Positions 1,777-42,421 of a stretch of 64,000 nucleotides of DNA are shown here, in pieces. Under the pieces are notes generated by a model, which did not search any database, had not been told where the DNA came from, and saw only the letters and a list, made by a program, of their open reading frames with translations. Every line of letters begins with the position of its first letter. Position 1 is the first letter of the stretch. The stretch covers positions 23,619 to 87,618 of the forward strand of contig JANPCZ010000102.1 of assembly GCA_031431215.1 (NCBI GenBank). Direction: 5' to 3'. The position numbers and the translations under genes are program-made. This DNA comes from Myxococcales bacterium. Its GTDB lineage: Bacteria; Myxococcota_A; Polyangia; Fen-1088.

Positions 1777-2693
1777 CGGGGCGGGTCCTGGTGACGGGCG
1801 CCGCTGGCGCGATGGGCTCGCGGCTGGTGCATGGACTCGCTGCCGCGGGGTGGGTGGTGCGGGCGCTGGTGCTGCCCGGGGATCCCCTGCGTTCGCGGAT
1901 CGCGGGCATCGCAAGCGAGGTGGTCGAGGGCGACGTCACCGACGCGGCGGCGATGGCTGCGGCATGTGTGGGCGTCGATACCGTCTATCACCTGGCGGCG
2001 GTGATCATTGCGCACGACTCGGCGGTGTTTCGCCGGGTCAACCGCGACGGTACGGCGCACATGGTGGTGGCGGCCGCGTCCGCGGGTGTCCGCCACTTCA
2101 TCTATGTGTCGTCGGCGTCGGTGACCTATCCGCGCCTGACTGCGTACGGCCAGTCCAAACTGGACGCTGAGGACATTGTCAAATCCGAGCGGGGCTTTCA
2201 GTACACCATCGTCCGGCCCACGCTGGTCTACGACCAGACCGGCGGGCAAGAGTTCGCGATGTTTCGCGCGTACCTGCAGCGCTTCCCGGTGGTGCCGTTC
2301 ATAGGTCCCGGGCATGCGAAGAAGAGTCCGGTGTTCTCGGGTGACGTGGTGGCGGGCCTGCTGGCGCTGGCCGGCAACGATCGCGCGCACGGCAAGACCT
2401 ACAATTTCGCCGGTGGCGAGGCCATCGAGGTAGCCGAGCTGGCGCGGTTGATGCTCGCGCAGCAGGGAGTGAGCAAACGCTTCGTGCACGTGCCGGTGGC
2501 GCTGTGCCGCGCGGCCGCTGCTGTGCTGGGCCGGGTGATGGCTTTTCCACCGCTGACTTTGTATACGATCGCCGCCATGCTCCACGATGCCGATCTGGAC
2601 TGCGGTCCCGCGGCGGCCGATCTCGGCTATCGTCCGCTTGGCGTGCGTGAAGGTTTCCGCAAGTGCTTTGGTACAAAGGAGACGCGATCATGA
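1773..2693 (+). CDS. NAD(P)-dependent sugar-nucleotide epimerase/dehydratase/reductase (extended SDR)
   Basis: Rossmann motif 'VLVTGAAGAMGSRLV' and catalytic 'YGQSK' (YxxxK). ATGA start/stop overlap with the upstream gene. Confidence 0.75.
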   Translation: MTGRVLVTGAAGAMGSRLVHGLAAAGWVVRALVLPGDPLRSRIAGIASEVVEGDVTDAAAMAAACVGVDTVYHLAAVIIAHDSAVFRRVNRDGTAHMVVAAASAGVRHFIYVSSASVTYPRLTAYGQSKLDAEDIVKSERGFQYTIVRPTLVYDQTGGQEFAMFRAYLQRFPVVPFIGPGHAKKSPVFSGDVVAGLLALAGNDRAHGKTYNFAGGEAIEVAELARLMLAQQGVSKRFVHVPVALCRAAAAVLGRVMAFPPLTLYTIAAMLHDADLDCGPAAADLGYRPLGVREGFRKCFGTKETRS

Positions 2694-3691
2694 CCAGATC
2701 CGGTATTGCAGTCTGTGTTCTCTTCGCAGCGTGTGGGACCGTGGGTGCGCCACCGGCGGGCGGTGACGAGACGGTAGGTGACGCCGAGGCCGCAGCGATG
2801 AAAGACGTCGGCGGAAAGGCGGCAGGCAAGATCGTCTGGTCGAGTTCTCGCGTGGGCAACCACGATCTGTTCGTCATGAGCACCGACGGCTCGGGTACGA
2901 CACAGTTGACCAAGGGCGACGCGGTCGACTGGTTTCCGCGCTTCTCGCCCGACGGGACGCGCATTCTGTTTTGCCGCAGCAAAAAAGGTTGGGTCAGCGA
3001 GCGCGACGCCAACACGCTCAACAAGTGGGACCTGTGGCTCATGAGCGCCGCCGGTGGCGACGAAAAGAAGATCGTCGACAACGCCAGCTGGGGCAGCTGG
3101 ATAGGCGCCGACGAAATCGTCTACGTGCGCGGGACCCAGATATTCCGGCGCACTCTTGATGGCGAAGCGCAAGCCATCATGAACAGCGAGGGCGTCGCCG
3201 CCCTGGATGGCGCGCTCTTGCAGCAGCCCGAGATGTCGAAGGACGGGCGTTTCATCGCCATCACGCTACGCGGATCGAAGCGCGAGACCGGCATCTGGAA
3301 CATCGCGAAAAAGACCTGGACCACCACCGGCCTGGGCTGCCAGATCAACTGGACGCCCGACGGTGGCCGCATCTACTGGGTCAATCCGACCGGTAACGGC
3401 GGCAGCGAGGTGTTCACCATGCCGATTGCCAACGGGAAGCCGGCGAAAAAAATGACCGATGACGAGTTGAAGTTCATCGACATCCCGGGTCGCCGCTCGC
3501 ACGAGTACTTCCCGCAGGTGTCGGCTGACGGCAAGTGGCTGGTGTGGGCGGCCACGCAGCGCGGGCACGACCACGACATCGCGGATTACGAAATCTACCT
3601 GTGGGAGATTGGCACGTCGCCCGACAAGGCCGTGCGCCTGACCTTTCATTCGGGCAACGACCGCTGGCCCGACCTGTTTCTGGGGCGATGA
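2690..3691 (+). CDS. TolB-like (PD40/WD40-like) β-propeller periplasmic lipoprotein
   Basis: Lipoprotein signal 'CVLFAACG'. Repeated 'SPDG(T/K)...' PD40-type repeats ('FPRFSPDGTRILF', 'FPQVSADGKWLVW'). ATGA overlaps at both ends. Confidence 0.6.
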   Translation: MTRSGIAVCVLFAACGTVGAPPAGGDETVGDAEAAAMKDVGGKAAGKIVWSSSRVGNHDLFVMSTDGSGTTQLTKGDAVDWFPRFSPDGTRILFCRSKKGWVSERDANTLNKWDLWLMSAAGGDEKKIVDNASWGSWIGADEIVYVRGTQIFRRTLDGEAQAIMNSEGVAALDGALLQQPEMSKDGRFIAITLRGSKRETGIWNIAKKTWTTTGLGCQINWTPDGGRIYWVNPTGNGGSEVFTMPIANGKPAKKMTDDELKFIDIPGRRSHEYFPQVSADGKWLVWAATQRGHDHDIADYEIYLWEIGTSPDKAVRLTFHSGNDRWPDLFLGR

Positions 3692-4776
3692 CCATCCGTC
3701 AGGTGGGCAGGCCGCATCGCATCGCCGTGCTGGGCGCGGGCGGGTTCGTGGGCTCGCACCTGGTGCCCGCGCTGGCGGCGCGGGGTGATGTGGTCATCGA
3801 CGCGGTGGATGTCACGCTCGACAAGTTGCCACCCACGCCGGCGCATGTGACCCGCATCCAGGCGTCCATCGGGAGCGCCGGTCTACTCGACCAGATCACC
3901 GCTCGCTGCGACACCGTGGTGTCGTTGACTGCGCTATGCAATCCGGCGCTGTACAACACGCGCCCGCTGGACGTCATCGACGCCAGCTTCACCGACCTAC
4001 TGCCCCTGGTAAAACTGTGCGCGGCGCGCGCGCGCTGGCTCATTCACTTTTCGACCTGCGAGGTGTATGGACGCGTGGCGCTGGACAGCGACGGGCGGCC
4101 GAGCGAGACGATGAACGAGGACGCCTCGGGGCTGTTCCTGGGGCCGGTGCACAAGGAACGCTGGACCTACGCGTGCGCCAAGCAACTGGCCGAGCGGGTG
4201 ATCTTTGCGCACGGTCGCCACGGGGGCTTGCCGTTTACCATCATCCGGCCGTTCAACGTGATCGGACCACGAATGGATTTCGTGCCCGGCATTGACGGCG
4301 AGGGCGTGCCGCGGGTGCTGGCGTCGTTCATGTCGGCGTTGTTGCGCGGCGATGATCTGCTGTTGGTCGATAGTGGGCGGCAGCGGCGCTCGTTCGTGTC
4401 AGTGGCGGAATTCGTCGATGCGATTGTGAGGGTCATCGACCGCCCGCACGTCACCCACGGCGAGATCCTGAACCTGGGTCATCCCGGTAACGACGTCAGC
4501 ATCCGCAGTCTGGCGCTGGCCCTGGTCCGCGCCTACGGACAGCAGGTGCCCGGTGCTCGCGTGCCTCGGTTGCGCGAAATCACCGCCGAGAGTTTGTATG
4601 GCCCCGGCTACGACGACTCGATCGAGCGTATTCCCGACATCGACAAGGCGCGACGGCTGCTCGACTGGGAGCCGCGCGTGACGCTCGACGAGATGCTCCC
4701 CGGTATCGTGGCCGACTACGTGGCTCGCTACGGGGCAGCGGTCAACGCTCAGGGCCAGAGGCACGCTGGCGAATGA
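3688..4776 (+). CDS. ArnA C-terminal-domain-like UDP-glucuronate oxidative decarboxylase (UDP-GlcA to UDP-4-keto-pentose); no formyltransferase domain
   Basis: Rossmann 'IAVLGAGGFVGSHLV', 'HFSTCEVYG', 'GPVHKERWTYACAKQLAERV' and 'RPFNVIGPRMD...SGRQRRSFV' line up block-for-block with the ArnA dehydrogenase domain and UXS (recalled from memory). ATGA overlaps. Confidence 0.7.
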   Translation: MTIRQVGRPHRIAVLGAGGFVGSHLVPALAARGDVVIDAVDVTLDKLPPTPAHVTRIQASIGSAGLLDQITARCDTVVSLTALCNPALYNTRPLDVIDASFTDLLPLVKLCAARARWLIHFSTCEVYGRVALDSDGRPSETMNEDASGLFLGPVHKERWTYACAKQLAERVIFAHGRHGGLPFTIIRPFNVIGPRMDFVPGIDGEGVPRVLASFMSALLRGDDLLLVDSGRQRRSFVSVAEFVDAIVRVIDRPHVTHGEILNLGHPGNDVSIRSLALALVRAYGQQVPGARVPRLREITAESLYGPGYDDSIERIPDIDKARRLLDWEPRVTLDEMLPGIVADYVARYGAAVNAQGQRHAGE

Positions 4777-5495
4777 AGCTTGTCGTCGTGATTCCCGCGT
4801 ACAACGCCGGCCGCCACCTGCGCGGTGTGGTTGATCGGGTGCGCACGGCGGCGCCGGTCGGGCTTCACCGCATTGTGATCGTCAACGATGGCAGCAGCGA
4901 TGACACCCGAGCGTTGTCAGCATCGCTTGCGGTTGGTGACCCGGGCGTCACACTGGTGGATCGGCCGCGCAACGGCGGCTACGGCGCCGCGATGAAGGAT
5001 GCCCTTGCCGCCGCCCGCGCGGCTGGTGCCGACGTTGTCGCGTGCGTCCACGCCGACGGGCAGTACAGTCCCGAGGCGCTGCCGGAGTTGCTAGAAGATC
5101 GCGCGCGCCGTGGCCTGGATGTGCTGCAAGGGTCGCGCATCGCCGGCGGCGCGGCGCTTGCCGGCGGCATGCCGGTCACCAAGTACGTGGCCAACTGGTG
5201 CTTGAACCGCATCGAGAACGTGACCCTGGGACTGACGATGACTGACTACCACAGCGGCTATCTGGTCTACGGCCCGCGGGCGCTTGCCGAACTGTCGTTC
5301 GGTTGCTTGTCCGACAGCTTCGATTTCGATCTGGAGGTCATCGCTTCGGCGCGGGCGCGCGGCCTGCTGGTCGGCGAGGCGCCGATTCCCACCCACTACG
5401 GCGACGAGATATCGTACCTGCGTCCGATCCCGTACACGCTGCGGGTTCTGCGCGTGCTGTGGCGCTACCGGCGAGGTGCGTATGCGCGTTCCTAG
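4773..5495 (+). CDS. Small soluble GT2 glycosyltransferase, polyprenyl-phosphate sugar synthase type (ArnC/DPM1/Ppm1-like)
   Basis: 'VVVIPAYNAG' and 'IVIVNDGSSDDT' GT-A/GT2 signature with DxD. 240 aa with no TM tail. ATGA overlap with the ArnA-like gene. Confidence 0.7.
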   Translation: MKLVVVIPAYNAGRHLRGVVDRVRTAAPVGLHRIVIVNDGSSDDTRALSASLAVGDPGVTLVDRPRNGGYGAAMKDALAAARAAGADVVACVHADGQYSPEALPELLEDRARRGLDVLQGSRIAGGAALAGGMPVTKYVANWCLNRIENVTLGLTMTDYHSGYLVYGPRALAELSFGCLSDSFDFDLEVIASARARGLLVGEAPIPTHYGDEISYLRPIPYTLRVLRVLWRYRRGAYARS

Positions 5496-7551
5496 CTGCG
5501 GCGGGCGCTGCGCCCTGGTTGCGATGCTGTTACCGCTGGCGTGCCATTCTGGCGGCCCGCGTTTCCCGTGGCCGGGCGCTGCCGACAACGTCGCCTTCGA
5601 GCATGCCGAGGTGCGCACTGTGAATGCCGGTTATCGGCGAACCACGTCGCGGGTGCTGGTGCGTGAGATCGATCGTCCGACGCGCGCCACGCTGGACTAC
5701 GCGGCCTACAACGCCAACTTCATGAACGCCGACGCCGAGCCGGAAGATCCGGCCGCGGCCGGGGTCGGCGCGCGGCCAGATGCGAGCCATCCGTTCGCAG
5801 GCGTGTTCGACGCTGCGACTTTGACGGCGTCGATCCGCAAGACGCCGTTGACCCCAGCCGAACGCGCACATCCACTGGCGTTCGCACCGCTGGTGGAGTA
5901 CTTGGCAACCAAGAACGCCGACGCCGCCTCCGGGCTTGAGGATGTCGCCGCGGCCGTGCGCGCCGAGTCCTGGGGCCTGCCCGGTGGCCCCCACATCGCG
6001 CGCCAGTTGGCCGCCCTGGTGTTCCTGCACGATCCGGGCGCGGACGCAGCGGCCGAGGTGTGGGTGAAGGTCGAGCTGTGGCCGTGGTTCAAGGCTTTTC
6101 CTGACGCTCCCGACGAGGACGGCGACGGCTTTCCGGAAGTCTACGGACGCGTGCGCGCCGATCTGATCAAGCCGGCGACGCTCGCTCTCATCCGGGACGA
6201 CTACGTTGGCAAGCCGTTCGGCGCCGCCGAGGTGAAGTCGTGGGCCAACCAGCTGTCGTCGTACTGGTACCCGTCGTACAACACCGATCTGGTGAAGGGC
6301 GCCGTGGTGTGGCCGGACGACGCAACCGAGTCCGAGGTCCGCGGCGAACTGGGCGGACGCACGTTCGACACGCCAGCGGTCGTGATGCGCGGCAAGCCGC
6401 AGGGCAAGCCGGTCTACAACGTCTTTCTGCTCAAGACGCCCGACGGCAAGCCGGCCGTTCGCCCCGCCGGGCCGGCAGCGACGGCGCCCACGCCGAAGCT
6501 CAAGCGCACCACCCCGACGCCGACGCCGGGCCCGGTCGCCGATGTGGTCAGGCGCGAACTTGCGGCCGCGGGTGGTGGATGGGACAAGTGGGCAGCCAGC
6601 GTCGCGCCGTTCGCCGACAGTGTCCGCAAGCGCGAGAAGAGCACGCCCGCGAGTGTGAAGGGGCTGCCCGGGCTCGATGGTTTCCTGTTCTTCCGTAACG
6701 CGCTTGACTACGTGGTCGGCGGCGATCTCGAGCAGCAAAAGCCCGGCAAGGCTCCGCTGCCGCTGATCGTTGAATTTCGCAAGCTGCTGGCCGACAACGG
6801 TGTCGATTTCCTGTTCGTGCCGGTGCCGACCAAGAGCGAAGTTCTGCCCGACAAGTTCGATCCGGCCGGCAAGCCGTTCGTCGGCAAGGTGGTCAACCCA
6901 TTTGCGCGCAAGTTCGCTCTGGCGCTGACCCAGGCCGGCGTCGAGGTGCTGGACCTCCTGCCGGCTTTCCTGGCCGAGCGGGCGAAGGACGCCACCGCGA
7001 AGGAGCCGATCTACCAGGCGCAGGACACCCACTGGAGTGCGCGCGGGATCGATCTCGCCGCCCGGCTGGTCGCCGCCCGGGTCAAGCAATACCCGTGGTA
7101 CCGCGAGCTTGCTAGCCACCCGCGAAAGTACACGGTGTCGGACGCTCCTTTCGTACGCCACGGAGATCTGCACTCGCGCCTGGCGCCCGCATTGCGTGGC
7201 AAGTACAAGCCCGAGACGCTGGTCGGGCATCAGGTGAAGGGCCCCGATGGCGCGCTCTACGAGGATGACGCCGACAGCCCGATCATCGTACTGGGCGACA
7301 GCTTCACCGGCGTGTACCAGTTGACTGACTGCCAACACGCTGGAATCTCGGCGCACATCGCCCGCGAGATTAGCAGCCCCGTGGATCTGGTGATGAGCTA
7401 CGGCGGTGGTCCCAACGTACGGCAGACGCTGATGCGCCGGGGCGTAGCTGATCTCAGCCGCCGCAAGCTGGTCATCTACATGATGACCGCGCGCGATCTG
7501 TACAACTACTCCGAGGGCTGGGATCCGTTGCGGTTGGAAGCCGGCAAGTGA
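5482..7551 (+). CDS. Lipoprotein with a ~400-aa N-terminal domain of unknown function fused to a C-terminal AlgJ/AlgX-like SGNH domain
   Basis: Signal peptide with lipobox 'LLPLACHSG'. C-terminal 'AQDTHWSARG' and 'IIVLGDSFTGVYQ' repeat the AlgJ motifs of the 523–1776 gene. Its start overlaps the GT2 gene stop by 14 nt. Confidence 0.6.
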   Translation: MRVPSCGGRCALVAMLLPLACHSGGPRFPWPGAADNVAFEHAEVRTVNAGYRRTTSRVLVREIDRPTRATLDYAAYNANFMNADAEPEDPAAAGVGARPDASHPFAGVFDAATLTASIRKTPLTPAERAHPLAFAPLVEYLATKNADAASGLEDVAAAVRAESWGLPGGPHIARQLAALVFLHDPGADAAAEVWVKVELWPWFKAFPDAPDEDGDGFPEVYGRVRADLIKPATLALIRDDYVGKPFGAAEVKSWANQLSSYWYPSYNTDLVKGAVVWPDDATESEVRGELGGRTFDTPAVVMRGKPQGKPVYNVFLLKTPDGKPAVRPAGPAATAPTPKLKRTTPTPTPGPVADVVRRELAAAGGGWDKWAASVAPFADSVRKREKSTPASVKGLPGLDGFLFFRNALDYVVGGDLEQQKPGKAPLPLIVEFRKLLADNGVDFLFVPVPTKSEVLPDKFDPAGKPFVGKVVNPFARKFALALTQAGVEVLDLLPAFLAERAKDATAKEPIYQAQDTHWSARGIDLAARLVAARVKQYPWYRELASHPRKYTVSDAPFVRHGDLHSRLAPALRGKYKPETLVGHQVKGPDGALYEDDADSPIIVLGDSFTGVYQLTDCQHAGISAHIAREISSPVDLVMSYGGGPNVRQTLMRRGVADLSRRKLVIYMMTARDLYNYSEGWDPLRLEAGK

Positions 7552-8387
7552 CGGCGGCGCCGCCGCGCTGGCTGGCACTGGCCCTGAGCGGATGCGTCGC
7601 GCTGTCACTGGCGAGTTGCCGGCGGGCCGATGGCGCACGTCCGGCGCGGCCGCGCACGCTTGAGTTGCTGGCTGCCGGTGGCGCCGTCGATCCGGCGGCC
7701 TCGCTGCTGGCTCTCGAGCGGATCGTGTCGCGGGTGCGCGAGGAGCGCAGACAGAAGCCCGTCGACACGATGCTGGCGGTGCTGAACCGTGTGGTCTTCG
7801 AGCACCTGGGATTCGCCCGCGAGATCGATGATCAGGATCCGCGTTTCATGTTGCTGCCGTCAGTGTTGGATCTGCGTCGCGGCAGTTGCGTGGGACTTGG
7901 CACGCTGTACCTGGCGCTCGGCGAGTGGTTGGGTTTGCCGATTGCGGGCGTGGTGGTGCCCGGTCACTTCTTCGTCCGCGTCACCGACGAGGGTGGCGTT
8001 CACAACGTCGAACTACTGCGGGGCGGCGAGGACATGCCCGACGACTTCTATCGCGGCAAATACCATGTGCCGTTGGCGGGCGCGCCCGCGTATCTGCGCC
8101 CGCTGGCACACTCCGAAGTGCTGGGTGTAGTCAGCTACAACCTGGGCAACGATCTGCGTCGGCGCGGGCGCCTGGCGGAGGCGCGGGATGCGTATGCGCG
8201 CGCAACCGCCAGCTTTCCCGCGTTCGCAGAGGCCCATGCGAGCCTGGGCCTGGTCCTGCAACTGCAGGGTGATCTACCGGCGGCCGAGCAAGCCTACGCA
8301 GCGGCACGGGCCGCGAACCCGGACCTGCCGGGGTTGGAACAGAACCTGAAGGTGCTCGAAAAAGAACGGCACGGAGGCGTCGAATGA
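7548..8387 (+). CDS. SirB1/YchA-like lipoprotein: transglutaminase-like core plus C-terminal TPR repeats
   Basis: Lipobox 'LSLASC'. 'RRGSCVGLGTLYLALGEWLGLPIAGVVVPGHFFVRV' gives a Cys...His transglutaminase-like core. The C-terminus has TPR-like helices 'AEAHASLGLVLQLQGDLPAAEQAY'. GTG start overlaps the previous stop. Confidence 0.55.
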   Translation: MTAAPPRWLALALSGCVALSLASCRRADGARPARPRTLELLAAGGAVDPAASLLALERIVSRVREERRQKPVDTMLAVLNRVVFEHLGFAREIDDQDPRFMLLPSVLDLRRGSCVGLGTLYLALGEWLGLPIAGVVVPGHFFVRVTDEGGVHNVELLRGGEDMPDDFYRGKYHVPLAGAPAYLRPLAHSEVLGVVSYNLGNDLRRRGRLAEARDAYARATASFPAFAEAHASLGLVLQLQGDLPAAEQAYAAARAANPDLPGLEQNLKVLEKERHGGVE

Positions 8388-8440
8388 CCTCGAATGAACC
8401 GCTTACTCCGGCCGTCCAACTTCGGATAGTATCCCCCGCC

Positions 8441-8878
8441 ATGACGAAACGCGGTTTTCGACTCGCCGTTCTTTTCGCTGTCCCCGCGGCCGCAATGGCC
8501 ATCGCCAGGCCGACGCCGGCTGTCGCCGACGAGCCCTTGGTGGTGACCGCGAAGCTTGTGGAGATCCCGGGCAAGTTTCCGTCTGACGATCTGTATGACT
8601 ACGCTTTCGTGATGCGCTACGAGGCCGTGGGCGGGCCGATGGCGGGCAAGTCCCTGCTGGTCGCGCACTACAAGCCGCGGCAGCCGCGCAACAAGATCAA
8701 AGACAAGATGAAGGACAAGGTCGGCGGCAAGCTGCGTAGCTTCGTGGTCGGCGATACGCACAAGCTCAAGCTCACCACCGACCTCAAGAAGATCTGGGCG
8801 GGCGCCCTGGTCGATGAGTTCGCCGCCACCGATCGCAAGAGCGTTCGCTACTTCTGTCTGGAAGCGGACCCGGGCTGA
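8441..8878 (+). CDS. Small secreted Lys-rich hypothetical protein (alternative start 8384, coupled to the upstream stop)
   Basis: Signal peptide 'MTKRGFRLAVLFAVPAAAMAIA' and a Lys-rich middle 'PRQPRNKIKDKMKDKVGGK'. No recognisable domain. Confidence 0.45.
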   Translation: MTKRGFRLAVLFAVPAAAMAIARPTPAVADEPLVVTAKLVEIPGKFPSDDLYDYAFVMRYEAVGGPMAGKSLLVAHYKPRQPRNKIKDKMKDKVGGKLRSFVVGDTHKLKLTTDLKKIWAGALVDEFAATDRKSVRYFCLEADPG

Positions 8879-8895: not shown

Positions 8896-10848
8896 GTGGG
8901 GTTCTTGCGCGGATGGCCGGTGGCGGTGGTGGCGGTGCTGGCGTTCGGCGCTGGCCTGACCGCGATCGCCGACGGCGACATCTTCTGGCACCTGGCCGCC
9001 GGGCGCGAGATGGTGCGCACGCGGGCATTCTTGCACGTCGATCCGTTCTCGCTTGTCGCAGCGGGGCGGCTCTGGGTCGATCTGCACTGGCTGTTCCAGC
9101 TTGGCGTCTTTGCCGTTCACACGCTTGGCGGCCTCGCCGGGCTCGTGCTGGTGAAGGCGGCAGTGGTAGCCGCCGGGGCCGTAGTGCTCGTGTACGCGGC
9201 AGGGCGCTCAGGCGGGGTTTCGGACGCGTCCGGGGCCGGTCGGATGGCACGCTTGATCTGCACGCTGGCGCTGTCTGCCATGCTGTTTGCCGCCCGCCAC
9301 CTCTTGCCCGTGCGTCCGGTGATCCTGACGTTGGTCTTTCTCGCCGCGTTCTTCTCGATCCTGGAAGACTTCCGTCGCGGTGGCGCCGTGCGTTCATTGT
9401 GGTGGTTGCCACCCCTGCAAATACTGTGGGCGAATTGCCAGGGCCTGTTCGCGCTTGGGCCGGCGCTGATCGGGGCCTTTGTCCTGGGCGCGCTCTTGCC
9501 TTCTGTCGGCGACCGACGCTGGCGGCCGCTGGCCGGCATGCTGGGCCTGTGTTTGCTGGCGTCCCTGGTCACGCCCTACGGCTGGCGCGGGCCGTGGCTG
9601 GCGGTTGAATTGCTGCTGCGCTTCGATCCCTCCAGCGCCAACGTGTACTCGGCGCAGATCGCGGAGAACGTGCCGCCGTGGATCCTCGAACGCTCCATGC
9701 CCGGGCTGTTTTTTCACCTGAAGTGGTTCCTCGGCTTTCTCGCCGCCAGTTTCTTGCTTGGACGCCGCCATCTGATAGCGAGCCACGCGGTGCTGGTGGC
9801 CGCGCTGGTGGCCCTGGCGCTGGTGGCGAATCGCAACGTGATCCTGCTCTACTGGCTCGGCGCACCGATTGGCGCCATCCAGGCGGCCCCGGCTCTGGCG
9901 GTGCTTGAGCGCTGGCTTCGTGAGCGCGGGCGTTCGGTGCGTGTGGCCGTCGGCGCCGTGGTCGCCGTTGCGGTGATCGCGCTGGCTGTGGTCGAGGTGA
10001 AGGCCTTTGCGCGCGAGCCGTCGCTTGCAGCCCCGACGCCGTTTCGCTTCCCGACCGCGTCGGCGGCGGTGCTTGCGACGACCCCGGCGGGTGGCGCGAT
10101 CTTCTCGGCCGATCACCAGGGCGGCTACCTCATCTGGACCCTTTACCCCCGCATCCGGCCTCACATGGACACGCGTCTCATCTTGCGTACCCGCGACGAA
10201 TACCAGGACTTCCTCGATCTGCTTGATCACCCCGAGCGCTTCGATTTCCTGTCGCAGCGGTATCGCTTCACGCACGCGGTGTTGCCGGTCGGCTTTCCGG
10301 GCCGCTACCTGGGCCTCATCGCGCACCTGGCCGGCAGCGCCGACTGGAAGCTGGTGTTCACCGACGGGCAGGAGACCCTGTTCGCCACCCGCGACGCCAC
10401 CGGCCCGGCGGTTGATCTGGCGGACCCCGCCACCACGCAACGCTTGCTCGACGGCTGCGCCGCGCGCTTTCCATCGGTAAGCGATCTGGCCGCGAGCTGT
10501 CGTGTGCAGACCGCCACGCTGCTCGTGGTGACGGGCCACCTCGCCCTGGCCGCGGGCGCTCTGAACGGCTTGCCCGGCGCCGACGCCCAGGTACTGCTTG
10601 CGCGTTGCCACCTGGCGCTGGGCGATGCCGCGGCCGCCGAAACCATCGCCCGTCGCCTGATCGATGGCGATCCCGAAGACACCGACGCGCTCACCCTGCT
10701 GGCCTCGATTGCCCTTGCGCGTGGCGACGGCGCGGGCGCTCTGACTTTCGTGCGGCGCGCGCTGCACATCGATCCGTTCCACGCCGGCGCACAGGCTTTG
10801 CTTGGCGGCATCGAGGTGGCAGCGCGGAACGCGGGGCCTCCCAGGTAG
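8896..10848 (+). CDS. GT-C fold integral-membrane glycosyltransferase (ArnT/PMT_2-like) fused to C-terminal TPR repeats (TMTC-like architecture)
   Basis: About 10–12 predicted TM helices. First extracytoplasmic loop 'DGDIFWHLAAGREM' matches the ArnT loop signature 'DETRYAEISREM' (D-x-aromatic-x-x-aliphatic-A/S-x-x-REM). C-terminal ~150 aa of TPR-like helices ('ARCHLALGDAAAAETIARRLIDGDPEDTDALTLLASIALARGD'). GTG start. Confidence 0.6.
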   Translation: MGFLRGWPVAVVAVLAFGAGLTAIADGDIFWHLAAGREMVRTRAFLHVDPFSLVAAGRLWVDLHWLFQLGVFAVHTLGGLAGLVLVKAAVVAAGAVVLVYAAGRSGGVSDASGAGRMARLICTLALSAMLFAARHLLPVRPVILTLVFLAAFFSILEDFRRGGAVRSLWWLPPLQILWANCQGLFALGPALIGAFVLGALLPSVGDRRWRPLAGMLGLCLLASLVTPYGWRGPWLAVELLLRFDPSSANVYSAQIAENVPPWILERSMPGLFFHLKWFLGFLAASFLLGRRHLIASHAVLVAALVALALVANRNVILLYWLGAPIGAIQAAPALAVLERWLRERGRSVRVAVGAVVAVAVIALAVVEVKAFAREPSLAAPTPFRFPTASAAVLATTPAGGAIFSADHQGGYLIWTLYPRIRPHMDTRLILRTRDEYQDFLDLLDHPERFDFLSQRYRFTHAVLPVGFPGRYLGLIAHLAGSADWKLVFTDGQETLFATRDATGPAVDLADPATTQRLLDGCAARFPSVSDLAASCRVQTATLLVVTGHLALAAGALNGLPGADAQVLLARCHLALGDAAAAETIARRLIDGDPEDTDALTLLASIALARGDGAGALTFVRRALHIDPFHAGAQALLGGIEVAARNAGPPR

Positions 10849-10926
10849 CGGCGATTGGTGGCGCCTGCCTAGTTGCTCGTCGACGTGAACCGTCTCGCAG
10901 GGTGGCCTGCTATTCTTACCGCCGTG

Positions 10927-11205: not shown

Positions 11206-12396
11206 CTACGGCGCTGGATAGAGACGGTTGCGCGGGATCACCTGTCGCGGCTGGCTCGGGCTCTCCCAGGTGAGGGCGACGTTCGCGTTTAGGGCCCCCT
11301 CCCGCATCTCCACCCTTATCGGGTAGCGACGTCCGGCCTCGAGGGGCACCATGGCGGTCCTGGTCCCCACCCCGCCTGAAAACCGATCGATCAGCAGGGC
11401 GCCATTCCACCACAGGCTGCTGCCGTCGTCGGAACTCAAGCTGATTGTGTAGTTCTCGGTGAACGGCGCCTCGACTTCGCCGGTCCAGCGCACGGTGAAG
11501 AAATCGGCCGGCACGCCAGGCGCGGGTGCGCCATTCTTCCAGTCGAAATTGACCGTCGGATCGATGCGAACCACCGTGGCCGGCGGGGTCAGCGTCGTGT
11601 TGCTGAAATACTCCCCCTTGAGACCGGTCCCCTGCGGCGCATCGACGGGCGCATCGACGGGCGCATCGACGGGGCTGACGTCGATGGCGCGATCGGGCGA
11701 CACATCGGGCGGCGGTGCATCGACGCGGGTGTCCGCCGCCGGTGGGGCGTCCGCCGCCGTGCCCTTGACCTCGACCGGGGCTCCATCGACCACCGGGGAA
11801 GTGACAGGCCCGCTGTCGATCGGACCTCCGCCCCCGTCCGGGGATTGAGGTCCGGTGTCGGCCATCGACCCCCGGCATGCACCGGTCGGGTCCTTGATGC
11901 TGGGACAGTTGTCGACCTCGTCCGGAATGCCGTCGTCATCCAGATCGGTGCCGCGCTGTGCGCGCAAGGTCACGGTCACTGTCTGTCGCACGGACGGCGA
12001 GGGGATGCGCGAGGGGATGCGGCTGGCACCCTCGGCCACCGCAACGGCGTCGCGCATTCCCCGCACCACGATCCGACGCTCACCGGGAAGCGACGCATCG
12101 GTTTCGATAATGATCGTGGCCAGAGTCGGACCCCGGCTCGCGAGTTCGCCCTGGTCAGGGACTCGGCGATCCAGGAACACCGCACCCTGTTCGTGAAACC
12201 AGCTCACCACAAGGTGGGACGGCCGGGGCACGTCGGGCTCGATCTCGAACCGAATCTCAAGGTTTCCAAATCGGGCGGGATCGCCGCAGGAAGGCCACCA
12301 AAACAAAGCGGCCGCGAGCCACGCCGCGAAACCCGTGCAAGGCCCGGATCCATTTCGCGGTCGTCTCCTTGGCTGCCCTCGAACGGCCACTCCCAT
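11206..12396 (-). CDS. Secreted protein with thrombospondin type-3-like Ca-binding repeats and a C-terminal PA14 domain
   Basis: 'DDDGIPDEVDNCPSIKDPTG' (TSP3-like) and 'GLKGEYFSNTTL...FFTVRWTGEVEAPFTENYTISLSSDDGSSLWWNG' (PA14). A Pro-rich linker contains a tandem 'VDAP' repeat. Start chosen at ATG 12396, because the 5' part of the track ORF overlaps the upstream gene and is low-complexity. Confidence 0.55.
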   Translation of the reverse strand: MGVAVRGQPRRRPRNGSGPCTGFAAWLAAALFWWPSCGDPARFGNLEIRFEIEPDVPRPSHLVVSWFHEQGAVFLDRRVPDQGELASRGPTLATIIIETDASLPGERRIVVRGMRDAVAVAEGASRIPSRIPSPSVRQTVTVTLRAQRGTDLDDDGIPDEVDNCPSIKDPTGACRGSMADTGPQSPDGGGGPIDSGPVTSPVVDGAPVEVKGTAADAPPAADTRVDAPPPDVSPDRAIDVSPVDAPVDAPVDAPQGTGLKGEYFSNTTLTPPATVVRIDPTVNFDWKNGAPAPGVPADFFTVRWTGEVEAPFTENYTISLSSDDGSSLWWNGALLIDRFSGGVGTRTAMVPLEAGRRYPIRVEMREGALNANVALTWESPSQPRQVIPRNRLYPAP

Positions 12397-12529
12397 CCAC
12401 AAACTATACGTCTTCTCCGAGCAAGCGCGCGCGAGGTCAATCCAGCAGCCTTGGCTCGCGCAGCACCAGCACCGAGCGGAGCCACTGCCGTGCGACGCAC
12501 GCGCGGGATGTCCCGGGGGCACTAGAGTA

Positions 12530-13825
12530 CTAGAGCCCGCGAATCCAGGCCGACACCAGGTCCACGCCCACCATGTCGACGTGCTTGGTCGCCAAGGGCG
12601 GCATGGCACTGTTGGTGCCTCGCTCGCGCATGCGGTAGATGACGCCGCTCTGGTCGGGACTGGCACGGACGATCCGGTCCGATACGACGGCGTTGCGAAA
12701 CCGCTGCAGCATGACTCCGATGGTCGTGCGATAGGCACCGGTGGCCTCGGGCACGCGATCGGAGGTGCCGATGCGCAGGAGCATGTCGGTGTCGGGCCGC
12801 GCGATGCCGGTGGGGTTGTGACAGTGGCCGCAGTTGGCGTGCAGGTACCCGATCGCCGTGCGCACGGCGCCCTCGCCGGGAACGCGGTAATCGGCATCCG
12901 GCGGTGGCGGTGCAGTCAACAGACCCGCGGCCACGAGCGAACTCAGGGTGGCCGACGTGCCCGCGGGACGCGACAGCTGCACGGCCGAGAATCCCAGCAG
13001 GCGGCCGGGCTCGCCGCTGTGGCATGACCAGCAGCGTTTCGCTGCCGGTACGTCGTGATCGGTGCCCAGGACGTTGGTCGCTCCGTCGGGTACGTAGACC
13101 GCGTCCGAGCCGTCCGCCTTCCATAGGAAGGCCCCCATCCAGTAGTCCATCTCGCCCGGTCCGGTGCGCTCGACCAGCCGGGTCTCTAGCGGCTTGCCGT
13201 CGCGGCTGAACTCTTTCCACGCTCGCGTGCCGACCGGGAAAGTCCAATGGTCCATGTTCGACGTGTCGATCTTTTCGCCCGGTGGCAACTGCAACCAACG
13301 CCGCTTGGTGGCACCGTCGGCCCACAGCACGTGCTCGGGGGCGAACGGAATCAGATCGGCAGCAAGCAGCTTCTTCGCCATGTCCGAGTAGAGCCCCGCC
13401 TCGGACAGCAAGTACGGGCCGGCGCCGTCGGGTGTCGGCTTGCGCTGGATCGCATCTGGCGCCGCCTCGGAGGCCGCGTCCTTGGTGTCGGCCGGCTGCG
13501 CGTCCATAGGTGGCAATTCGTCGGCGGGCACGTCAGGCGCCGAAAGGCCGGGCGCGTCCCCGGCTTCGGGTGCAGGCTGGCGCATATCCGTCAGGTCGCT
13601 TGGGTCGGCACCGGCGGTTTCCGGGAGGCTGGCCGGGGCATCCGGGGTGGGCTGTCCGGGCCTGTCGCCAACCACCGCGGCAGCGTCGGTATCGACCACG
13701 GGCGGGTCGATGGGTCCGTTGGCTCCCGGATCGCCGCAGCCAAAAACGAAAACGAGCGGCGCGAGCACAAAGGCTCGCGTCGCTCGTGGGGTGGGGTGTG
13801 CGGCTGTCACGCGCACCACGGGCAA
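12530..13825 (-). CDS. Lipoprotein with two CxxCH haem-binding motifs (putative dihaem c-type cytochrome-domain protein)
   Basis: Lipobox 'VFVFGCGD'. 'KRCWSCHSGE' and 'HANCGHCHNP'. The track start is TTG; the real start is probably one of the GTGs at 13808–13819. Confidence 0.6.
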   Translation of the reverse strand: MPVVRVTAAHPTPRATRAFVLAPLVFVFGCGDPGANGPIDPPVVDTDAAAVVGDRPGQPTPDAPASLPETAGADPSDLTDMRQPAPEAGDAPGLSAPDVPADELPPMDAQPADTKDAASEAAPDAIQRKPTPDGAGPYLLSEAGLYSDMAKKLLAADLIPFAPEHVLWADGATKRRWLQLPPGEKIDTSNMDHWTFPVGTRAWKEFSRDGKPLETRLVERTGPGEMDYWMGAFLWKADGSDAVYVPDGATNVLGTDHDVPAAKRCWSCHSGEPGRLLGFSAVQLSRPAGTSATLSSLVAAGLLTAPPPPDADYRVPGEGAVRTAIGYLHANCGHCHNPTGIARPDTDMLLRIGTSDRVPEATGAYRTTIGVMLQRFRNAVVSDRIVRASPDQSGVIYRMRERGTNSAMPPLATKHVDMVGVDLVSAWIRGL

Positions 13826-13838
13826 GGGCTTGCCGACC

Positions 13839-15122
13839 TTATGGGGCCACGCACTGGTTGGGCAGCATGTTCATCTTGCCCGGAAGGGTGACGATGAAAT
13901 TGGCGATGTCCTGAGCGTCGGCGTCCGTGAGGCCACCGAAGTTGCCCATCGGCCCGGCCGGCATCGGCGGGCAGACCTTCTTGTCCATCTTGTCGAGGCC
14001 CATCTTCAGCACCTTGATCACGTCATTGGCGACCCAGCCCTTGATGCCGGTGTCGTCCTGGGTGAGGTTCTGCGTGTAGATCTTGGCTGGGAACGGCGGC
14101 ACCGGCAGGCCGAAGCCGGCGGCGTCGAACTCGCGTGCACCGGCGAAATACAAGGTCTTGTCGAGCGGGTGCGGCGATCCCATGGCGGCGTCCTTGGTGT
14201 GGCAGCCGATGCAGGCCACTGCGGCGATGTAGCGCCCGCGCTTGGCGGAAGCTTCGTTGGCCGCGCCCGCGGCGACGTCAGGCACGTCCGTCAGAGCGAC
14301 CGCCACGGCCGCCGCGGCCGGCGGATCGGTGAACGGTGGCTCGTTGGGCGGCACCATGTTGTCGACCGCCGGGATGGTCCGCAGGTAAGCGACCACTGCA
14401 TCGGCGTCGTCGGAGGTCAGGTTCGCGTACTCGTAGTACGGCATGAACGAGTGCATCGGCTTGCCGTCGGGCCGCATGCCCTTGGTGAACATGTCCTTGA
14501 TCTGGGTGTCGGTGCGCGTCTTGAGTCCGTTTTCGTGCGGAGTCAGGTTGCGGCTGTTCACGCAGCCCATGCCGTTGGTCGCGGGCGGAATGATGTCGAA
14601 CAGGCATTTCACGCCGGACAAGAACTTCGTCATGTCGGGAGCGCCCATCGCGCCGCGAGGGGTGTGGCAATCACCGCAGCTCAGCAGGGTGTTCACCAGG
14701 TAAGAACCGCGCGCTGCCGGGCCGGTCAAGGCCACGACGTCAGTCGACGCGTCGGTGGCCACAGCGTCAGTACCAGTCTCGGCCCTGGCAGCATCGCTGG
14801 CGTCGGTGCCAGTCTCGCCGCGGGCGGCGTCGGTACCGCCCTCGCTGCGGCTGGCATCGCTGGGCGTGCCCATCTCGGCCGCCACGTCGGCAGGAGAGGT
14901 ATCGGGCCGTCCCGCATCCATGCCGGCAGAACCACCGCCAGCACTACCCGCCACGCCACCGCCATCCGAACCCGCGCGACCGGCACCGCCACCGGCACCG
15001 CCCTTGGTGCCGCCGTCGTCTACCATCACCATCGGACCGTCCTTCTTGCTGTCGCCATCGTCATCGCAGGCCGCCAGAAGCGATGAAACCGAGAACAGTA
15101 CCGCCAGAGCTCGTGTGCGCAT
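13839..15122 (-). CDS. Dihaem c-type cytochrome lipoprotein (two class-I-like cytochrome c domains)
   Basis: Lipobox 'SLLAACDD'. 'LLSCGDCHTP' and 'AVACIGCHTKD' CxxCH motifs. Good SD 'aagggggaa' 7 nt upstream of the ATG. A Gly/Ser/Asp-rich linker follows the signal peptide. Confidence 0.65.
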   Translation of the reverse strand: MRTRALAVLFSVSSLLAACDDDGDSKKDGPMVMVDDGGTKGGAGGGAGRAGSDGGGVAGSAGGGSAGMDAGRPDTSPADVAAEMGTPSDASRSEGGTDAARGETGTDASDAARAETGTDAVATDASTDVVALTGPAARGSYLVNTLLSCGDCHTPRGAMGAPDMTKFLSGVKCLFDIIPPATNGMGCVNSRNLTPHENGLKTRTDTQIKDMFTKGMRPDGKPMHSFMPYYEYANLTSDDADAVVAYLRTIPAVDNMVPPNEPPFTDPPAAAAVAVALTDVPDVAAGAANEASAKRGRYIAAVACIGCHTKDAAMGSPHPLDKTLYFAGAREFDAAGFGLPVPPFPAKIYTQNLTQDDTGIKGWVANDVIKVLKMGLDKMDKKVCPPMPAGPMGNFGGLTDADAQDIANFIVTLPGKMNMLPNQCVAP

Positions 15123-15373
15123 GGATCTGATTCCCCCTTGTTGGCGCGCATATTAACCATCGTTTCGACGAAGGGAAGCAGAATTTTCTCGGGCTAACCT
15201 CGGTACCCCCAGCGCGATCGCCCGGCTCGGGGCGCGCCCCTGACGGCGGTTGGCACGATGCCTGCGACGATGTTTCTGGCTGATGTCAACGTCCACATGA
15301 CGGCCACCCTGGCCACGGGCCCGCTGGTCGCGGACATTCGCCAAGTAGCAGCGCGATCCGGGTCGCCGGTCGG

Positions 15374-17566
15374 CTAACGGCGCCGGCGGCGCGACCGGGC
15401 GTGCACCACGACCGCGAAGGTCAACCACAGGCCTGCTAGCGCTCCGCCGGCCAGCGCGCCTCTGCCACCCACCCCGCACGAGCAACCGCCACCCTGGGTC
15501 GCGATTTCGATCCGTTCAGCCTGGCATTCCTTGAGTAGCCCGCAGAAGCCGGTGCCGTCGGTGGCGACATCGCACTTGTAGCAGCCGTTGGGGCACTTGA
15601 TGGTGGCGCACGGATCGTCCTTGCACTCGCCGGTCGCCGGGACGCAGCGTTGTCCAGCTGAGCACGCGCCAAACCTGCACCGGTCGGCCTTGCACGTGAG
15701 GGTGACCGGATCGCAGACCTCACCCGCAATGCAGGTGGCGGTGACCGGGGCGCACTTGTCGACCTGGCATGTGCCGGCGGCGCAGCGCTGGCCGGGCGGG
15801 CACGGCGAGGTGCACAGGTTGGTGCACACGCCTTTCTCGTTGCAGAACTGGTCAGGTTTGCATTTCTTGCCCGCGCACGGGTCCTTCTGGCACAGTCCGG
15901 CCCGGCACTGCTGACCGGCCGGACAGCCAAGCGAGTAGCAGTCGACGCAGCGACCGTCCAAGCAGGTCTGCGGCGCAACGCAGGTGACGTTGGCGCATTT
16001 GTCCTTGCACTCGCCGGTACCTTCCTCGCACGACGACCCCGCCGGGCAGACCTTGCCAACGCACTTCAAGCTCTTGCACACGGGTGGCATCATCGAGGTG
16101 TCACAGGCGTAGCCGGTCGGACAGCGGAATTCGCCCTCACCGCACAGCAATTCGCACTTGCACCCGACACACGCGAAGCCGGCGCCGCACGGGTTGCCTT
16201 CGTCCTTCATGCCGTTGCAGTTGTTGTCCTTGCAGTCGCAGATCTCCTTGACAGGGCCGACGCAGCCTTCGCAGTCGAGCGGCATCTTGCCTTTGCACAC
16301 GTTCTTGCCCGCCCGACACTCTCCGGTGTTCAGCATTTCGAGCGATAGGGGCGGGCACGCGCATTCTTTGCCGACGTTAGGCAGGTTCTCGTCGATGAGG
16401 CCGTTGCAATTGTCGTCGATGCCATTGCACACCTCCTCGCCCGGGCCGACGCAGCCTTCGCACACCAGTGCACCCGCGACGCACTTGAGGTTGCCTTTCT
16501 TGCACATGCCCTTACCGACCATCTCTTCGGTCAGGCCAGGGCACAGGCAGGGACCGCCCACGTCGGGCAGCGGGCCATCGATGCCCTTCATGTTGTCGAT
16601 GTCGCCGTTGCAATTGTCGTCCTTGCCGTTGCAGATCTCCCCCGGCGGCACCGACTCGGCGATGATGCCGATGAGCGCGGCCTTGGTCGCCGCCGGGTTG
16701 AGAAAGTCCACCTTCAGTGACGCCGGGCGCTTGCCGCCGCTGCCCCGGCTGGCGATCTGGTCGTGCACGGTCCCGACCTCACCCAGTTGCACGACGACGT
16801 ACAGTTCGACACCCGCCTTGTACAGATCCTCGGCGGCCTGGGGTGCGTCGCCGCCGCAGGTCTCCGCGCCGTCGGTGACCAGAATGACGATGTCCTTGCG
16901 GCAGCCCATGCGCGGATCATTGGGTTTGACGTAGCGCTGGAAGTACAGCCGGGCATAAAACAAGGACGCCGCCAGCGGCGTCTTTGGGCCGCCCACGCGG
17001 ATCTCGGGCTCAGTCATGGTGACACCGTCCGAGATCTCCACGTTGTTCAGCCAGCGGTGAATGGTGACCACGTTGGCGCCGGGTGGATCGTAGTCGTTGC
17101 TGTCGGGTGGCGGCAGCTTGCCTGTGACCGGCACGACCACAAACTCCGAGGCGATGTCCGGCAGGAACCACGCGCCGTCGGGCGCCTCAATGGCCGCTGT
17201 GGTCTTGCAGCCGAGGTTGGCGCCGGTGTCGATGGCGTTGATGTAGTGGCCCCGGTAGCAACCGCGGTCGGTCGCTGGCGTGGTTCGCTGCGGGAAGCGC
17301 GCAAGACCGAAGTTGGCCTCATCGGTGCCGACCTCCGTCAGTGTCTCGCGGATGGCTTGCTTGAGGCGGAAGAACCGCGAGTTCATGCCCTGGTTCATGC
17401 ATAGGGGCGAGCCGTCGCCGCCGTTGAGCAGCATCGACGTCGAGGTGTCGAAGATGAACAGGATGTTGGGCCGCACCGGCTGGGCGCCGGCCGTGCGTGC
17501 GAAGAGCAATCCGGCCGCGACCAGGCCAGCGGTGGCGACGAGGTTGACGATGTTTCTTCTACGCAT
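15374..17566 (-). CDS. Secreted von Willebrand factor A (MIDAS) domain protein with myxobacterial Cys-rich repeats and a MYXO-CTERM sorting tag
   Basis: Signal peptide. 'NILFIFDTSTSM' is a DxSxS MIDAS motif. Many EGF-like Cys repeats including 'CNGKDDNCNGDIDN' and 'CNGIDDNCNGLIDE'. C-terminal 'GGGCSCGVGG...LWLTFAVVVHARSRRRRR' matches MYXO-CTERM. Confidence 0.7.
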   Translation of the reverse strand: MRRRNIVNLVATAGLVAAGLLFARTAGAQPVRPNILFIFDTSTSMLLNGGDGSPLCMNQGMNSRFFRLKQAIRETLTEVGTDEANFGLARFPQRTTPATDRGCYRGHYINAIDTGANLGCKTTAAIEAPDGAWFLPDIASEFVVVPVTGKLPPPDSNDYDPPGANVVTIHRWLNNVEISDGVTMTEPEIRVGGPKTPLAASLFYARLYFQRYVKPNDPRMGCRKDIVILVTDGAETCGGDAPQAAEDLYKAGVELYVVVQLGEVGTVHDQIASRGSGGKRPASLKVDFLNPAATKAALIGIIAESVPPGEICNGKDDNCNGDIDNMKGIDGPLPDVGGPCLCPGLTEEMVGKGMCKKGNLKCVAGALVCEGCVGPGEEVCNGIDDNCNGLIDENLPNVGKECACPPLSLEMLNTGECRAGKNVCKGKMPLDCEGCVGPVKEICDCKDNNCNGMKDEGNPCGAGFACVGCKCELLCGEGEFRCPTGYACDTSMMPPVCKSLKCVGKVCPAGSSCEEGTGECKDKCANVTCVAPQTCLDGRCVDCYSLGCPAGQQCRAGLCQKDPCAGKKCKPDQFCNEKGVCTNLCTSPCPPGQRCAAGTCQVDKCAPVTATCIAGEVCDPVTLTCKADRCRFGACSAGQRCVPATGECKDDPCATIKCPNGCYKCDVATDGTGFCGLLKECQAERIEIATQGGGCSCGVGGRGALAGGALAGLWLTFAVVVHARSRRRRR

Positions 17567-17578
17567 GATGACGGCTCC

Positions 17579-42414: not shown

Positions 42415-42421
42415 TCCAATC

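Follow-up and report, generated by a model that had tools for sequence, protein, structure and literature searches.

A large family of predicted GT-C-fold membrane proteins and a candidate pentose-transfer operon in Polyangia

The gene studied here occupies positions 8896-10848 on the forward strand of a 64,000-nucleotide stretch, hereafter the window, of a Myxococcales bacterium genome (class Polyangia; GenBank assembly GCA_031431215.1, contig JANPCZ010000102.1, positions 23,619 to 87,618). The original prediction took its product, our target, for a GT-C membrane glycosyltransferase with an acidic, ArnT-like loop right after the first transmembrane (TM) helix and with tetratricopeptide repeats (TPR) at the C-terminus. 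Translation, hydropathy and a structural model agree with the reading frame and with the acidic loop right after TM1. The TPR-like helical pairs are also present: Pfam TPR_16, TPR_19 and TPR_14 match residues 562-629, and the AlphaFold2 model shows eight helices between residues 511 and 645, a tail of about 140 residues. The gene and its 3' flank comprise the following parts.

8896-10848, forward strand: the target open reading frame, 650 codons with a GTG start, encoding a predicted GT-C-fold membrane protein (reading-frame call and translation)
8896-10014, forward strand: predicted membrane domain, residues 1-373, about 11 TM helices with the N-terminus inside (model, hydropathy, positive-inside rule)
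8971-9012, forward strand: motif of the first loop, predicted to be periplasmic, residues 26-39, D26-G-D28-I-F-W31-H32-L33-A-A-G-R-E-M
10015-10410, forward strand: predicted periplasmic mixed alpha/beta domain, residues 374-505, with the invariant G409-G410 and D425-x-R427 (secondary structure of the model)
10426-10830, forward strand: TPR-like helical pairs, residues 511-645, eight helices (Pfam, model, TPR matches in the PDB)
10897-10910, forward strand: terminator-like hairpin about 50 nucleotides past the target stop codon (consensus scan only)

The loop sequence DGDIFWHLAAGREM (target residues 26-39, nucleotides 8971-9012) directly follows the first hydrophobic helix (residues 3-24). A database protein, P0001, is 100% identical but 642 amino acids long, corresponding to an alternative GTG start at 8920; the first helix is the same whichever start, 8896 or 8920, is chosen. 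GC content at third codon positions (GC3) is 0.83, on a par with the neighbouring genes.

The AlphaFold2 model was built on an alignment of 43 homologues with 45-55% identity, all from genomes or metagenomes of Polyangia/Myxococcales, and reached a mean predicted local distance difference test score (pLDDT) of 92.5 and a predicted TM-score (pTM) of 0.91. Foldseek comparison of this model with the PDB returned 13 GT-C chains at E<=1e-3, with TM-scores of 0.37-0.58, and GT-C enzymes ranked above TPR proteins. The matches were these.

Yeast and human STT3: E 8.5e-7 to 3.8e-5, TM-score 0.47-0.58; best 8agc_A, E 8.5e-7, query TM-score 0.54
PglB: E 9e-5 to 3e-4, TM-score 0.39-0.44; 5ogl at 9e-5
ArnT, 5f15: E 9.6e-5, TM-score 0.47 (query) and 0.54 (target)
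AftB: E 6.1e-4, TM-score 0.37-0.38
ALG12: E 9.6e-4, TM-score 0.39-0.49
AftA: E 1.9e-3, TM-score 0.31-0.32

Judged by the model, membership of the target in the GT-C fold class stands, with similarity to STT3, PglB, ArnT, AftB and ALG12. Of the two relatives anticipated by the original prediction, the ArnT structure was indeed recovered, but no PMT chain appeared among the top 50 Foldseek matches. The best matches, the oligosaccharyltransferases STT3/PglB/AglB (GT66), share with the target an acidic loop after TM1, a multi-pass domain and a C-terminal extracytoplasmic alpha/beta domain. Unlike them, the target has about 11 predicted TM helices rather than 13, lacks the WWDxG motif and any STT3 Pfam match, carries a TPR tail and is encoded in an operon without genes for a lipid-pyrophosphate-linked oligosaccharide.

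The 11 TM helices and the internal N-terminus were deduced from the helices of the model and from hydropathy. Lysine plus arginine per residue amounts to 0.24 in the predicted cytoplasmic loops versus 0.08 in the periplasmic ones, and this ordering holds in 43 of 43 sequences. By the positive-inside rule, the acidic DxD loop with its conserved D28, W31-H32 and D49, an 'AENVPP' loop and the C-terminal domains would all face the periplasm. A cytoplasmic placement of the loop after TM1 is contradicted by this rule, which here takes the place of a dedicated topology predictor.

We scored conservation across the family on 44 representatives, with identities down to about 24%, and on a close set of 43 relatives. 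Residues D28, W31, H32, L33, D49, W65, Q68, R140, P141, L184, P227, E257, R313, N314, G409, G410, D425 and R427 are invariant in the 44 representatives, and the D26 column contains D in 27 and N in 16 of them. The REM triplet, described in the original prediction as invariant, is not: its glutamate E38 is retained in 36 of 43 close relatives but in 24 of the 44 representatives, among which R37 is kept in 34 and M39 in 26. Because the invariant columns hold D-[ILV]-[WF]-W-H-L while E38 does not persist, this string, rather than REM, is the hallmark of the family as judged from the alignment. D28 occupies the position of the GT-C catalytic acid and is the putative catalytic acid of the target. 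An essential Asp just past TM1 is the rule in GT-C enzymes, as exemplified by D31 of the founder of GT136 (PMC11127046).

The same columns bear on whether the protein is an enzyme at all. A degenerate GT-C fold might instead serve as a membrane scaffold or transporter, with the TPR tail organising periplasmic acetylation proteins. In the alginate, Pel and cellulose systems, TPR proteins do act as scaffolds for enzymes that modify the polysaccharide, and the enzymatic role of the family is a prediction. Yet polar and charged residues in loops, including the canonical GT-C acid, are strictly conserved through all 44 representatives, down to about 24% identity, and most family members have no TPR to serve such a purpose. 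We regard a non-enzymatic role as highly improbable.

The original prediction had the loop aligning residue for residue with that of ArnT, and this did not hold. E. coli ArnT does contain PDETRYAEISREM, but that loop has 12 residues versus 14 in the target, and anchoring the two on REM gives 4 identities in 12. BLASTP between the target and E. coli ArnT found no high-scoring segment pair at the loop; the best match (E 2.1) lay elsewhere in the proteins. With a profile of the 44-sequence family, hhalign assigned a probability of 2.4% to a match with the single ArnT sequence and 4.5% to one with a 12-sequence ArnT alignment, a shallow one, as the search for ArnT homologues yielded relatives of at least 76% identity only. 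In the best hhalign alignment the N-terminal modules are paired and GREM falls on SREM, at the cost of a 6-residue gap that sets the Asp residues of the family against Ser/Thr/Arg and off the Asp-Glu of ArnT.

Profile searches likewise gave no sign of kinship with ArnT (GT83) or with PMT/TMTC (GT39/GT105). PF02366 (PMT) and PF13231 (PMT_2) matched none of 12 family members at E<=10, whereas genuine ArnT clusters all carry both; the STT3 and DUF1736 profiles also found no match in the 12 members at that threshold. WWDxG is absent from all 43 close relatives and all 44 family representatives (87 sequences). Sequence searches of solved structures with the protein and two profiles returned TPR matches only, and the TPR-less profile returned none. 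Membership in GT83, GT39/GT105 and GT66 was considered and rejected, since each fails at least one defining test among Pfam profile, REM and loop, Arn gene context and WWDxG.

The target belongs to a large GT-C family for which Pfam has no model. When a TPR-less profile (residues 1-505) was searched against 1.84 billion cluster representatives, it retrieved 25,439 proteins at E<=0.001 and 2,654 at E<=1e-30. In 10 representatives (E 1e-70 to 1e-117) Pfam found nothing but TPR, save one sub-threshold MerT match, and in 12 members the membrane domain had no Pfam match at E<=10. Public records call these proteins 'hypothetical' or 'tetratricopeptide repeat protein' and nothing more specific. A one-genome-per-species scan located relatives in Polyangia (four complete Sorangium genomes among them), Fibrobacterota, Binatia, Spirochaetales and Planctomycetota. 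On one metagenomic contig (L006, 20621-22049), a GT-C gene of the TMEM260_N type (PF11028) lies about 9 kb from the target homologue; therefore, these genomes carry several distinct GT-C families.

Of the 44 representatives, 28 end within 70 residues past the alpha/beta domain and 16 carry 120-295 extra residues. Three of the 10 representatives scanned with Pfam (759-858 amino acids) fall among the 16, and their tails are multi-repeat TPR. Because 28 of 44 do without a tail, the core of the family, as the alignment delineates it, is the membrane domain plus the predicted periplasmic alpha/beta domain, and the TPR tail is a lineage-specific accessory. In eight Fibrobacterota-type loci (L061, L063, L064, L068, L070, L071, L074 and L076), a transglutaminase-TPR gene directly precedes the target homologue, 1-2 kb upstream. 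The homologue itself is TPR-less in all eight, and the TPR function may there be supplied in trans.

The original prediction described the fusion of a GT-C domain with TPR, outside eukaryotic TMTCs, as poorly characterised in bacteria. This view needs correction, because TfpW, the pilin D-arabinofuranosyltransferase of P. aeruginosa, is a studied bacterial case with the same architecture, a likeness drawn from published descriptions only. TfpW has about 646 amino acids and 11 predicted TM helices; its first periplasmic loop contains an acidic DDX motif that is essential, its C-terminal domain is a periplasmic TPR domain, and its donor is a lipid-linked pentofuranose. Whereas the donor of the target would be made from a UDP-sugar by a GT2, TfpW obtains its own from PRPP, by way of a UbiA-type synthase and DprE1/E2, and its gene adjoins pilA. 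Eukaryotic TMTC1-4 and PMT (GT105/GT39) also resemble the target: in TMTC the membrane domain is followed by luminal TPRs, and the donor is a polyprenyl-phosphate monosaccharide. Unlike TMTC and PMT, the target has no PMT, PMT_2 or DUF1736 match and has an extra alpha/beta domain before the TPRs, and most of its family is TPR-less.

A run of same-strand genes, which overlap by 4-14 nucleotides or stand 3-17 nucleotides apart, ends with the target. The genes upstream of it are as follows.

1-519, forward strand: 3' end only of an MBOAT (AlgI-like) gene, truncated at the window edge; LLGGLWHGASWNFVLWG appears in the translation of frame 1
523-1776, forward strand: membrane-anchored AlgX/AlgJ-type SGNH protein (Pfam ALGX, E 1e-23; one N-terminal hydrophobic segment)
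1743-2693, forward strand: NAD-dependent short-chain dehydrogenase/reductase (SDR), NmrA/epimerase-like (Pfam)
2663-3691, forward strand: secreted PD40/TolB-like beta-propeller (Pfam PD40; found in 42 of 85 loci)
3688-4776, forward strand: UDP-glucuronate decarboxylase of the UDP-apiose/UDP-xylose synthase (UAXS) type, 362 amino acids; ATGA overlap with the upstream gene
4773-5495, forward strand: GT2 glycosyltransferase, 240 amino acids, no TM segment (Pfam Glycos_transf_2)
5482-7551, forward strand: secreted protein, possibly a lipoprotein, about 690 amino acids, with a C-terminal AlgX-type SGNH domain (Pfam ALGX, E 2e-23; N-terminal sequence)
7548-8387, forward strand: Transglut_core2 and TPR protein with a lipobox-like N-terminus (Pfam; lipobox-like strings)
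8384-8878, forward strand: small secreted protein, 164 amino acids, with a signal peptide and no Pfam match

The MBOAT fragment carries 'GGLWHGASWNF', and a full-length MBOAT holds the same position in related loci. A PDB search with the SDR returned generic relatives only.

We used the operon proteins as tblastn queries on 85 loci related to that of the target. The MBOAT, both AlgX-type proteins, the SDR, the PD40 protein, the decarboxylase and the GT2 are each encoded no more than 10 kb away from the target homologue in 41-49 of the 85, so that about half of the loci, from Polyangia including Sorangium and partly from Fibrobacterota, have cluster genes. Four complete Sorangium genomes are among them, and in many loci the gene order is circularly permuted. 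Fibrobacterota can carry subsets, with MBOAT, AlgX and PD40 in L074 and with SDR, decarboxylase and GT2 in L076. That the GT2 is co-operonic with the target, as originally proposed, agrees with the common strand and the 4-14-nucleotide overlaps or 17-nucleotide gap from one gene to the other, and with their lying no more than 10 kb apart in 41 of 85 loci.

All seven relatives of the GT2 in the PDB at E<=1e-3 are polyprenyl-phosphate glycosyltransferases, including the Pyrococcus Dol-P-Man synthase, three ArnC structures and GtrB. It is reasonable to regard the GT2, on this sequence evidence, as the presumptive polyprenyl-phosphate sugar synthase.

As for the sugar, the decarboxylase found its best PDB match in Arabidopsis UAXS1 (6h0n; E 5e-84, 285 bits), against E 1e-55 (190 bits) for ArnA and E 1e-19 (72 bits) for human UXS. 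Its identity to Arabidopsis UAXS1, 44.9% over 345 residues, lies within the 43-49% that verified bacterial UDP-apiose synthases, such as those encoded in the Xanthomonas pisi and Geminicoccus roseus operons, share with the Arabidopsis enzyme (PMC5607165, PMC6193724). Both UAXS positions Cys100 and Cys140 are occupied by Cys ('ALCNPA' and 'FSTCEVYG'), where UXS and ArnA carry Ala and Ser; Cys100 has been described as key to ring opening (PMC12820599). Of 42 decarboxylase homologues from the clusters, 41 have Cys at the position equivalent to Cys100; at the one equivalent to Cys140, 18 have Cys, 23 Ala and 1 Ser. By these comparisons the enzyme is of the UDP-apiose/UDP-xylose synthase type, nearer to UAXS than to UXS or ArnA. 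Because it is UAXS-like and has both cysteines, the sugar of the operon is likely a pentose made from UDP-glucuronic acid (UDP-GlcA), either xylose or apiose.

The apiose of X. pisi goes to a GT90 Leloir enzyme of the cytoplasm, and the genes on either side are reportedly not conserved (PMC5607165, PMC6193724); the decarboxylase studied here, in contrast, has a GT2 and a GT-C enzyme as partners in a cluster that is conserved. Among the papers searched, none linked apiose to myxobacteria or Fibrobacter and none described a comparable gene arrangement. Apiose is a rare sugar, and to our knowledge bacterial UDP-apiose synthases come from only a handful of species, none of them from such a gene context.

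The sequence of UDP-GlcA decarboxylase, GT2 and GT-C enzyme parallels the logic of the arn operon, and in the original prediction the target had an ArnT flavour, which would make it a decorator of lipid A or the core of lipopolysaccharide (LPS). The 5f15 fold match (E 9.6e-5), the relation of the decarboxylase to ArnA and of the GT2 to ArnC, the non-significant hhalign pairing of the N-terminal modules with GREM on SREM, and the fact that two distant homologues adjoin a gene for an LpxO/OlsC-type hydroxylase would fit such a role. Nonetheless, the route to the donor seems to depart from that of the Arn system: the operon has no ArnB, ArnD, ArnE/F or ArnA formyltransferase domain, all expected from the E. 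coli arn locus, and its UAXS-type decarboxylase has Cys where ArnA has Ala and Ser. The enzyme itself differs in its loop motif and in having no detectable sequence homology to ArnT (BLASTP E>2, hhalign below 5%), with neither PMT nor PMT_2, both of which real ArnT contains. The host lineage, moreover, includes Sorangium, in which the cluster is present, and S. cellulosum So ce56 is reported to have no LPS (Keck et al. 2011, as cited in PMC12971839). Because of that report, lipid A is an unlikely target in Sorangium, and we consider ArnT-type decoration of lipid A or LPS core very unlikely overall.

A different acceptor is suggested by the other genes of the cluster. The MBOAT and the two AlgX-type genes (523-1776 and 5482-7551) make up an alginate-like O-acetylation module; MBOAT proteins and their AlgX/AlgJ-type partners O-acetylate exported polysaccharides such as alginate and acetylated cellulose. 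Their co-inheritance with the target suggests that what is decorated or built is a glycan outside the cytoplasm and not lipid A. Since O-acetylation machinery needs a periplasmic polymer, and since the cluster contains no other polysaccharide synthase or polymerase, no Wzx/Wzy and no ABC exporter, the target might itself polymerise: like Emb, Aft and TfpW with arabinofuranose, it would assemble lipid-linked donors into a pentose oligomer or polymer, which MBOAT and AlgX would then O-acetylate. AftB and AftA are among the fold matches, and TfpW is proposed both to polymerise and to transfer. However, nothing in the sequence separates single transfer from polymerisation, and in genomes of more than 10 Mb the polymer substrate could be encoded elsewhere. 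We therefore rate a polymerising enzyme as distinctly unlikely.

The small secreted protein (8384-8878) is the most conserved member of the cluster. It has 1,088 homologues, all unnamed, with 57-70% identity over the whole alignment and 63-81% in local BLASTP alignments, compared with 45-55% for the target homologues. Its gene occurs in 47 of the 85 loci; in most of the related loci from Polyangia, 1-2 kb separate it from the target homologue downstream. Its AlphaFold2 model is weak (pLDDT 67.8, a small beta-barrel-like structure), and Foldseek found no match to it below E 0.1.

This protein is the candidate substrate if the target is a protein glycosyltransferase, whether O-glycosylating like TMTC, PMT and TfpW or oligosaccharyltransferase-like, with the TPR recruiting a periplasmic protein. 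Such a role would suit the fold matches, headed by the STT3 and PglB oligosaccharyltransferases, and the adjoining position of the small protein in 47 of 85 loci with its higher identity (57-70% versus 45-55%); TPR domains, according to published descriptions, recruit protein substrates in TfpW and TMTC-type enzymes. Yet WWDxG occurs in 0 of 43 and 0 of 44 sequences, no STT3 or PMT Pfam match was found, 28 of 44 representatives lack the TPR that would do the recruiting, and the alignment of the small protein has no visible conserved stretch that is Ser/Thr-rich or sequon-like. MBOAT and AlgX proteins, as in AlgI/J/X and WssH/I, are moreover typical of polysaccharide rather than protein modification. 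We consider protein glycosylation an unlikely function of the target.

With moderate confidence, we propose instead that the target is an inner-membrane GT-C glycosyltransferase that acts in the periplasm and depends on a polyprenyl-phosphate-linked pentose, the pentose coming from a donor made by the operon. The soluble, PpgS/DPM1-like GT2 would transfer the pentose to polyprenyl phosphate, and the lipid-linked pentose would be flipped across the membrane by a component encoded outside the operon. In the periplasm, the GT-C enzyme would then pass the pentose to an acceptor held by the alpha/beta and TPR domains, with D28 as the probable catalytic base. The scheme resembles the three-component systems GtrA/B/C, PpgS-Rv3779 and GT136, in which a cytoplasmic polyprenyl-phosphate-sugar synthase is paired with a GT-C enzyme acting after export (PMC11127046). 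The GT136 founder has 11 TM helices, a catalytic Asp beside TM1 and a C-terminal substrate-binding domain (PMC11127046). Unlike these systems, the operon of the target lacks a flippase gene and has a GT2 without TM segments, a UAXS-like sugar source, and MBOAT and AlgX genes co-inherited with the rest.

Several observations weigh against this proposal. The family is known here from sequence and predicted structure alone, and in BLASTP, hhalign, Pfam and PDB searches its sequence showed no significant relation to GT-C families that have been characterised. That the invariant residues line one periplasm-facing pocket is assumed. Unlike ArnC and GtrB with their TM helices, the GT2 has no hydrophobic segment, and its best NCBIfam matches (PpgS, Dol-P-hexose transferase, AglJ and ArnC) are all far below cutoff; for these two reasons its use of polyprenyl phosphate as acceptor is only presumed. 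The PpgS model family (226 positions) likewise lacks a hydrophobic segment. The operon contains no flippase gene of the GtrA, SMR or MATE type, its genes abutting or overlapping with no space left for a further one and with no small multi-pass protein among them. About half of the related loci show no cluster up to 10 kb away; short contigs account for some of these, but in L005 and L039, where the full 10-kb flanks are available, it is absent as well. Among more distant relatives, at 27-33% identity, the neighbouring genes are unrelated.

Beyond the enzyme itself, the cluster might represent a lipid-linked route for apiose, or for xylose from the same enzyme, in which a new GT-C family builds or decorates an O-acetylated envelope glycan across Polyangia and Fibrobacterota. 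This extension is tentative and rather doubtful; if true, both its lipid-linked apiose donor and its GT-C apiosyltransferase would be the first of their kind, in a pathway shared by the LPS-lacking Sorangium. Envelope assembly and decoration are the work of GT-C enzymes, and a single characterised member can still be enough to found a new family, as with GT136 in 2024. The conserved operon offers a concrete, testable pathway with a gene of the UDP-apiose/UDP-xylose synthase type, in a field, bacterial apiose use, that is barely explored. Identification of the acceptor would reveal a new envelope component of Sorangium-type myxobacteria, at least one of which is reported to be without LPS.

Other genes were observed around the target and its homologues. 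In many related loci (for example L001 at 8922-9992 and 11980-13053, and L004 at 8957-9994 and 11979-13223), a Pfam-less protein of about 350 amino acids and a SASA-type gene flank the target homologue. SASA-type denotes sialate O-acetylesterase-like, and neither flanking gene is seen beside the target in the window. Two distant homologues with 28-29% identity, one in a deltaproteobacterial and one in a Binatia metagenome-assembled genome, directly follow a gene of the Asp/Asn beta-hydroxylase family (L082 at 9016-9951 and L084 at 8983-9918), a family that includes the lipid hydroxylases LpxO and OlsC.

Downstream of the target, the reverse strand of the window (11206-18985) encodes a protein with a PA14 domain, a di-haem cytochrome c protein, and a pair of proteins that carry MopE-type copper-binding motifs, in one case together with an FGE-sulfatase domain. 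Farther on, the forward strand (42332-53870) carries genes unrelated to the target: those for alternative complex III (4Fe-4S subunit, NrfD-like protein, ActD and cytochrome c), then SCO1, followed by cytochrome c oxidase subunits II, I and III.

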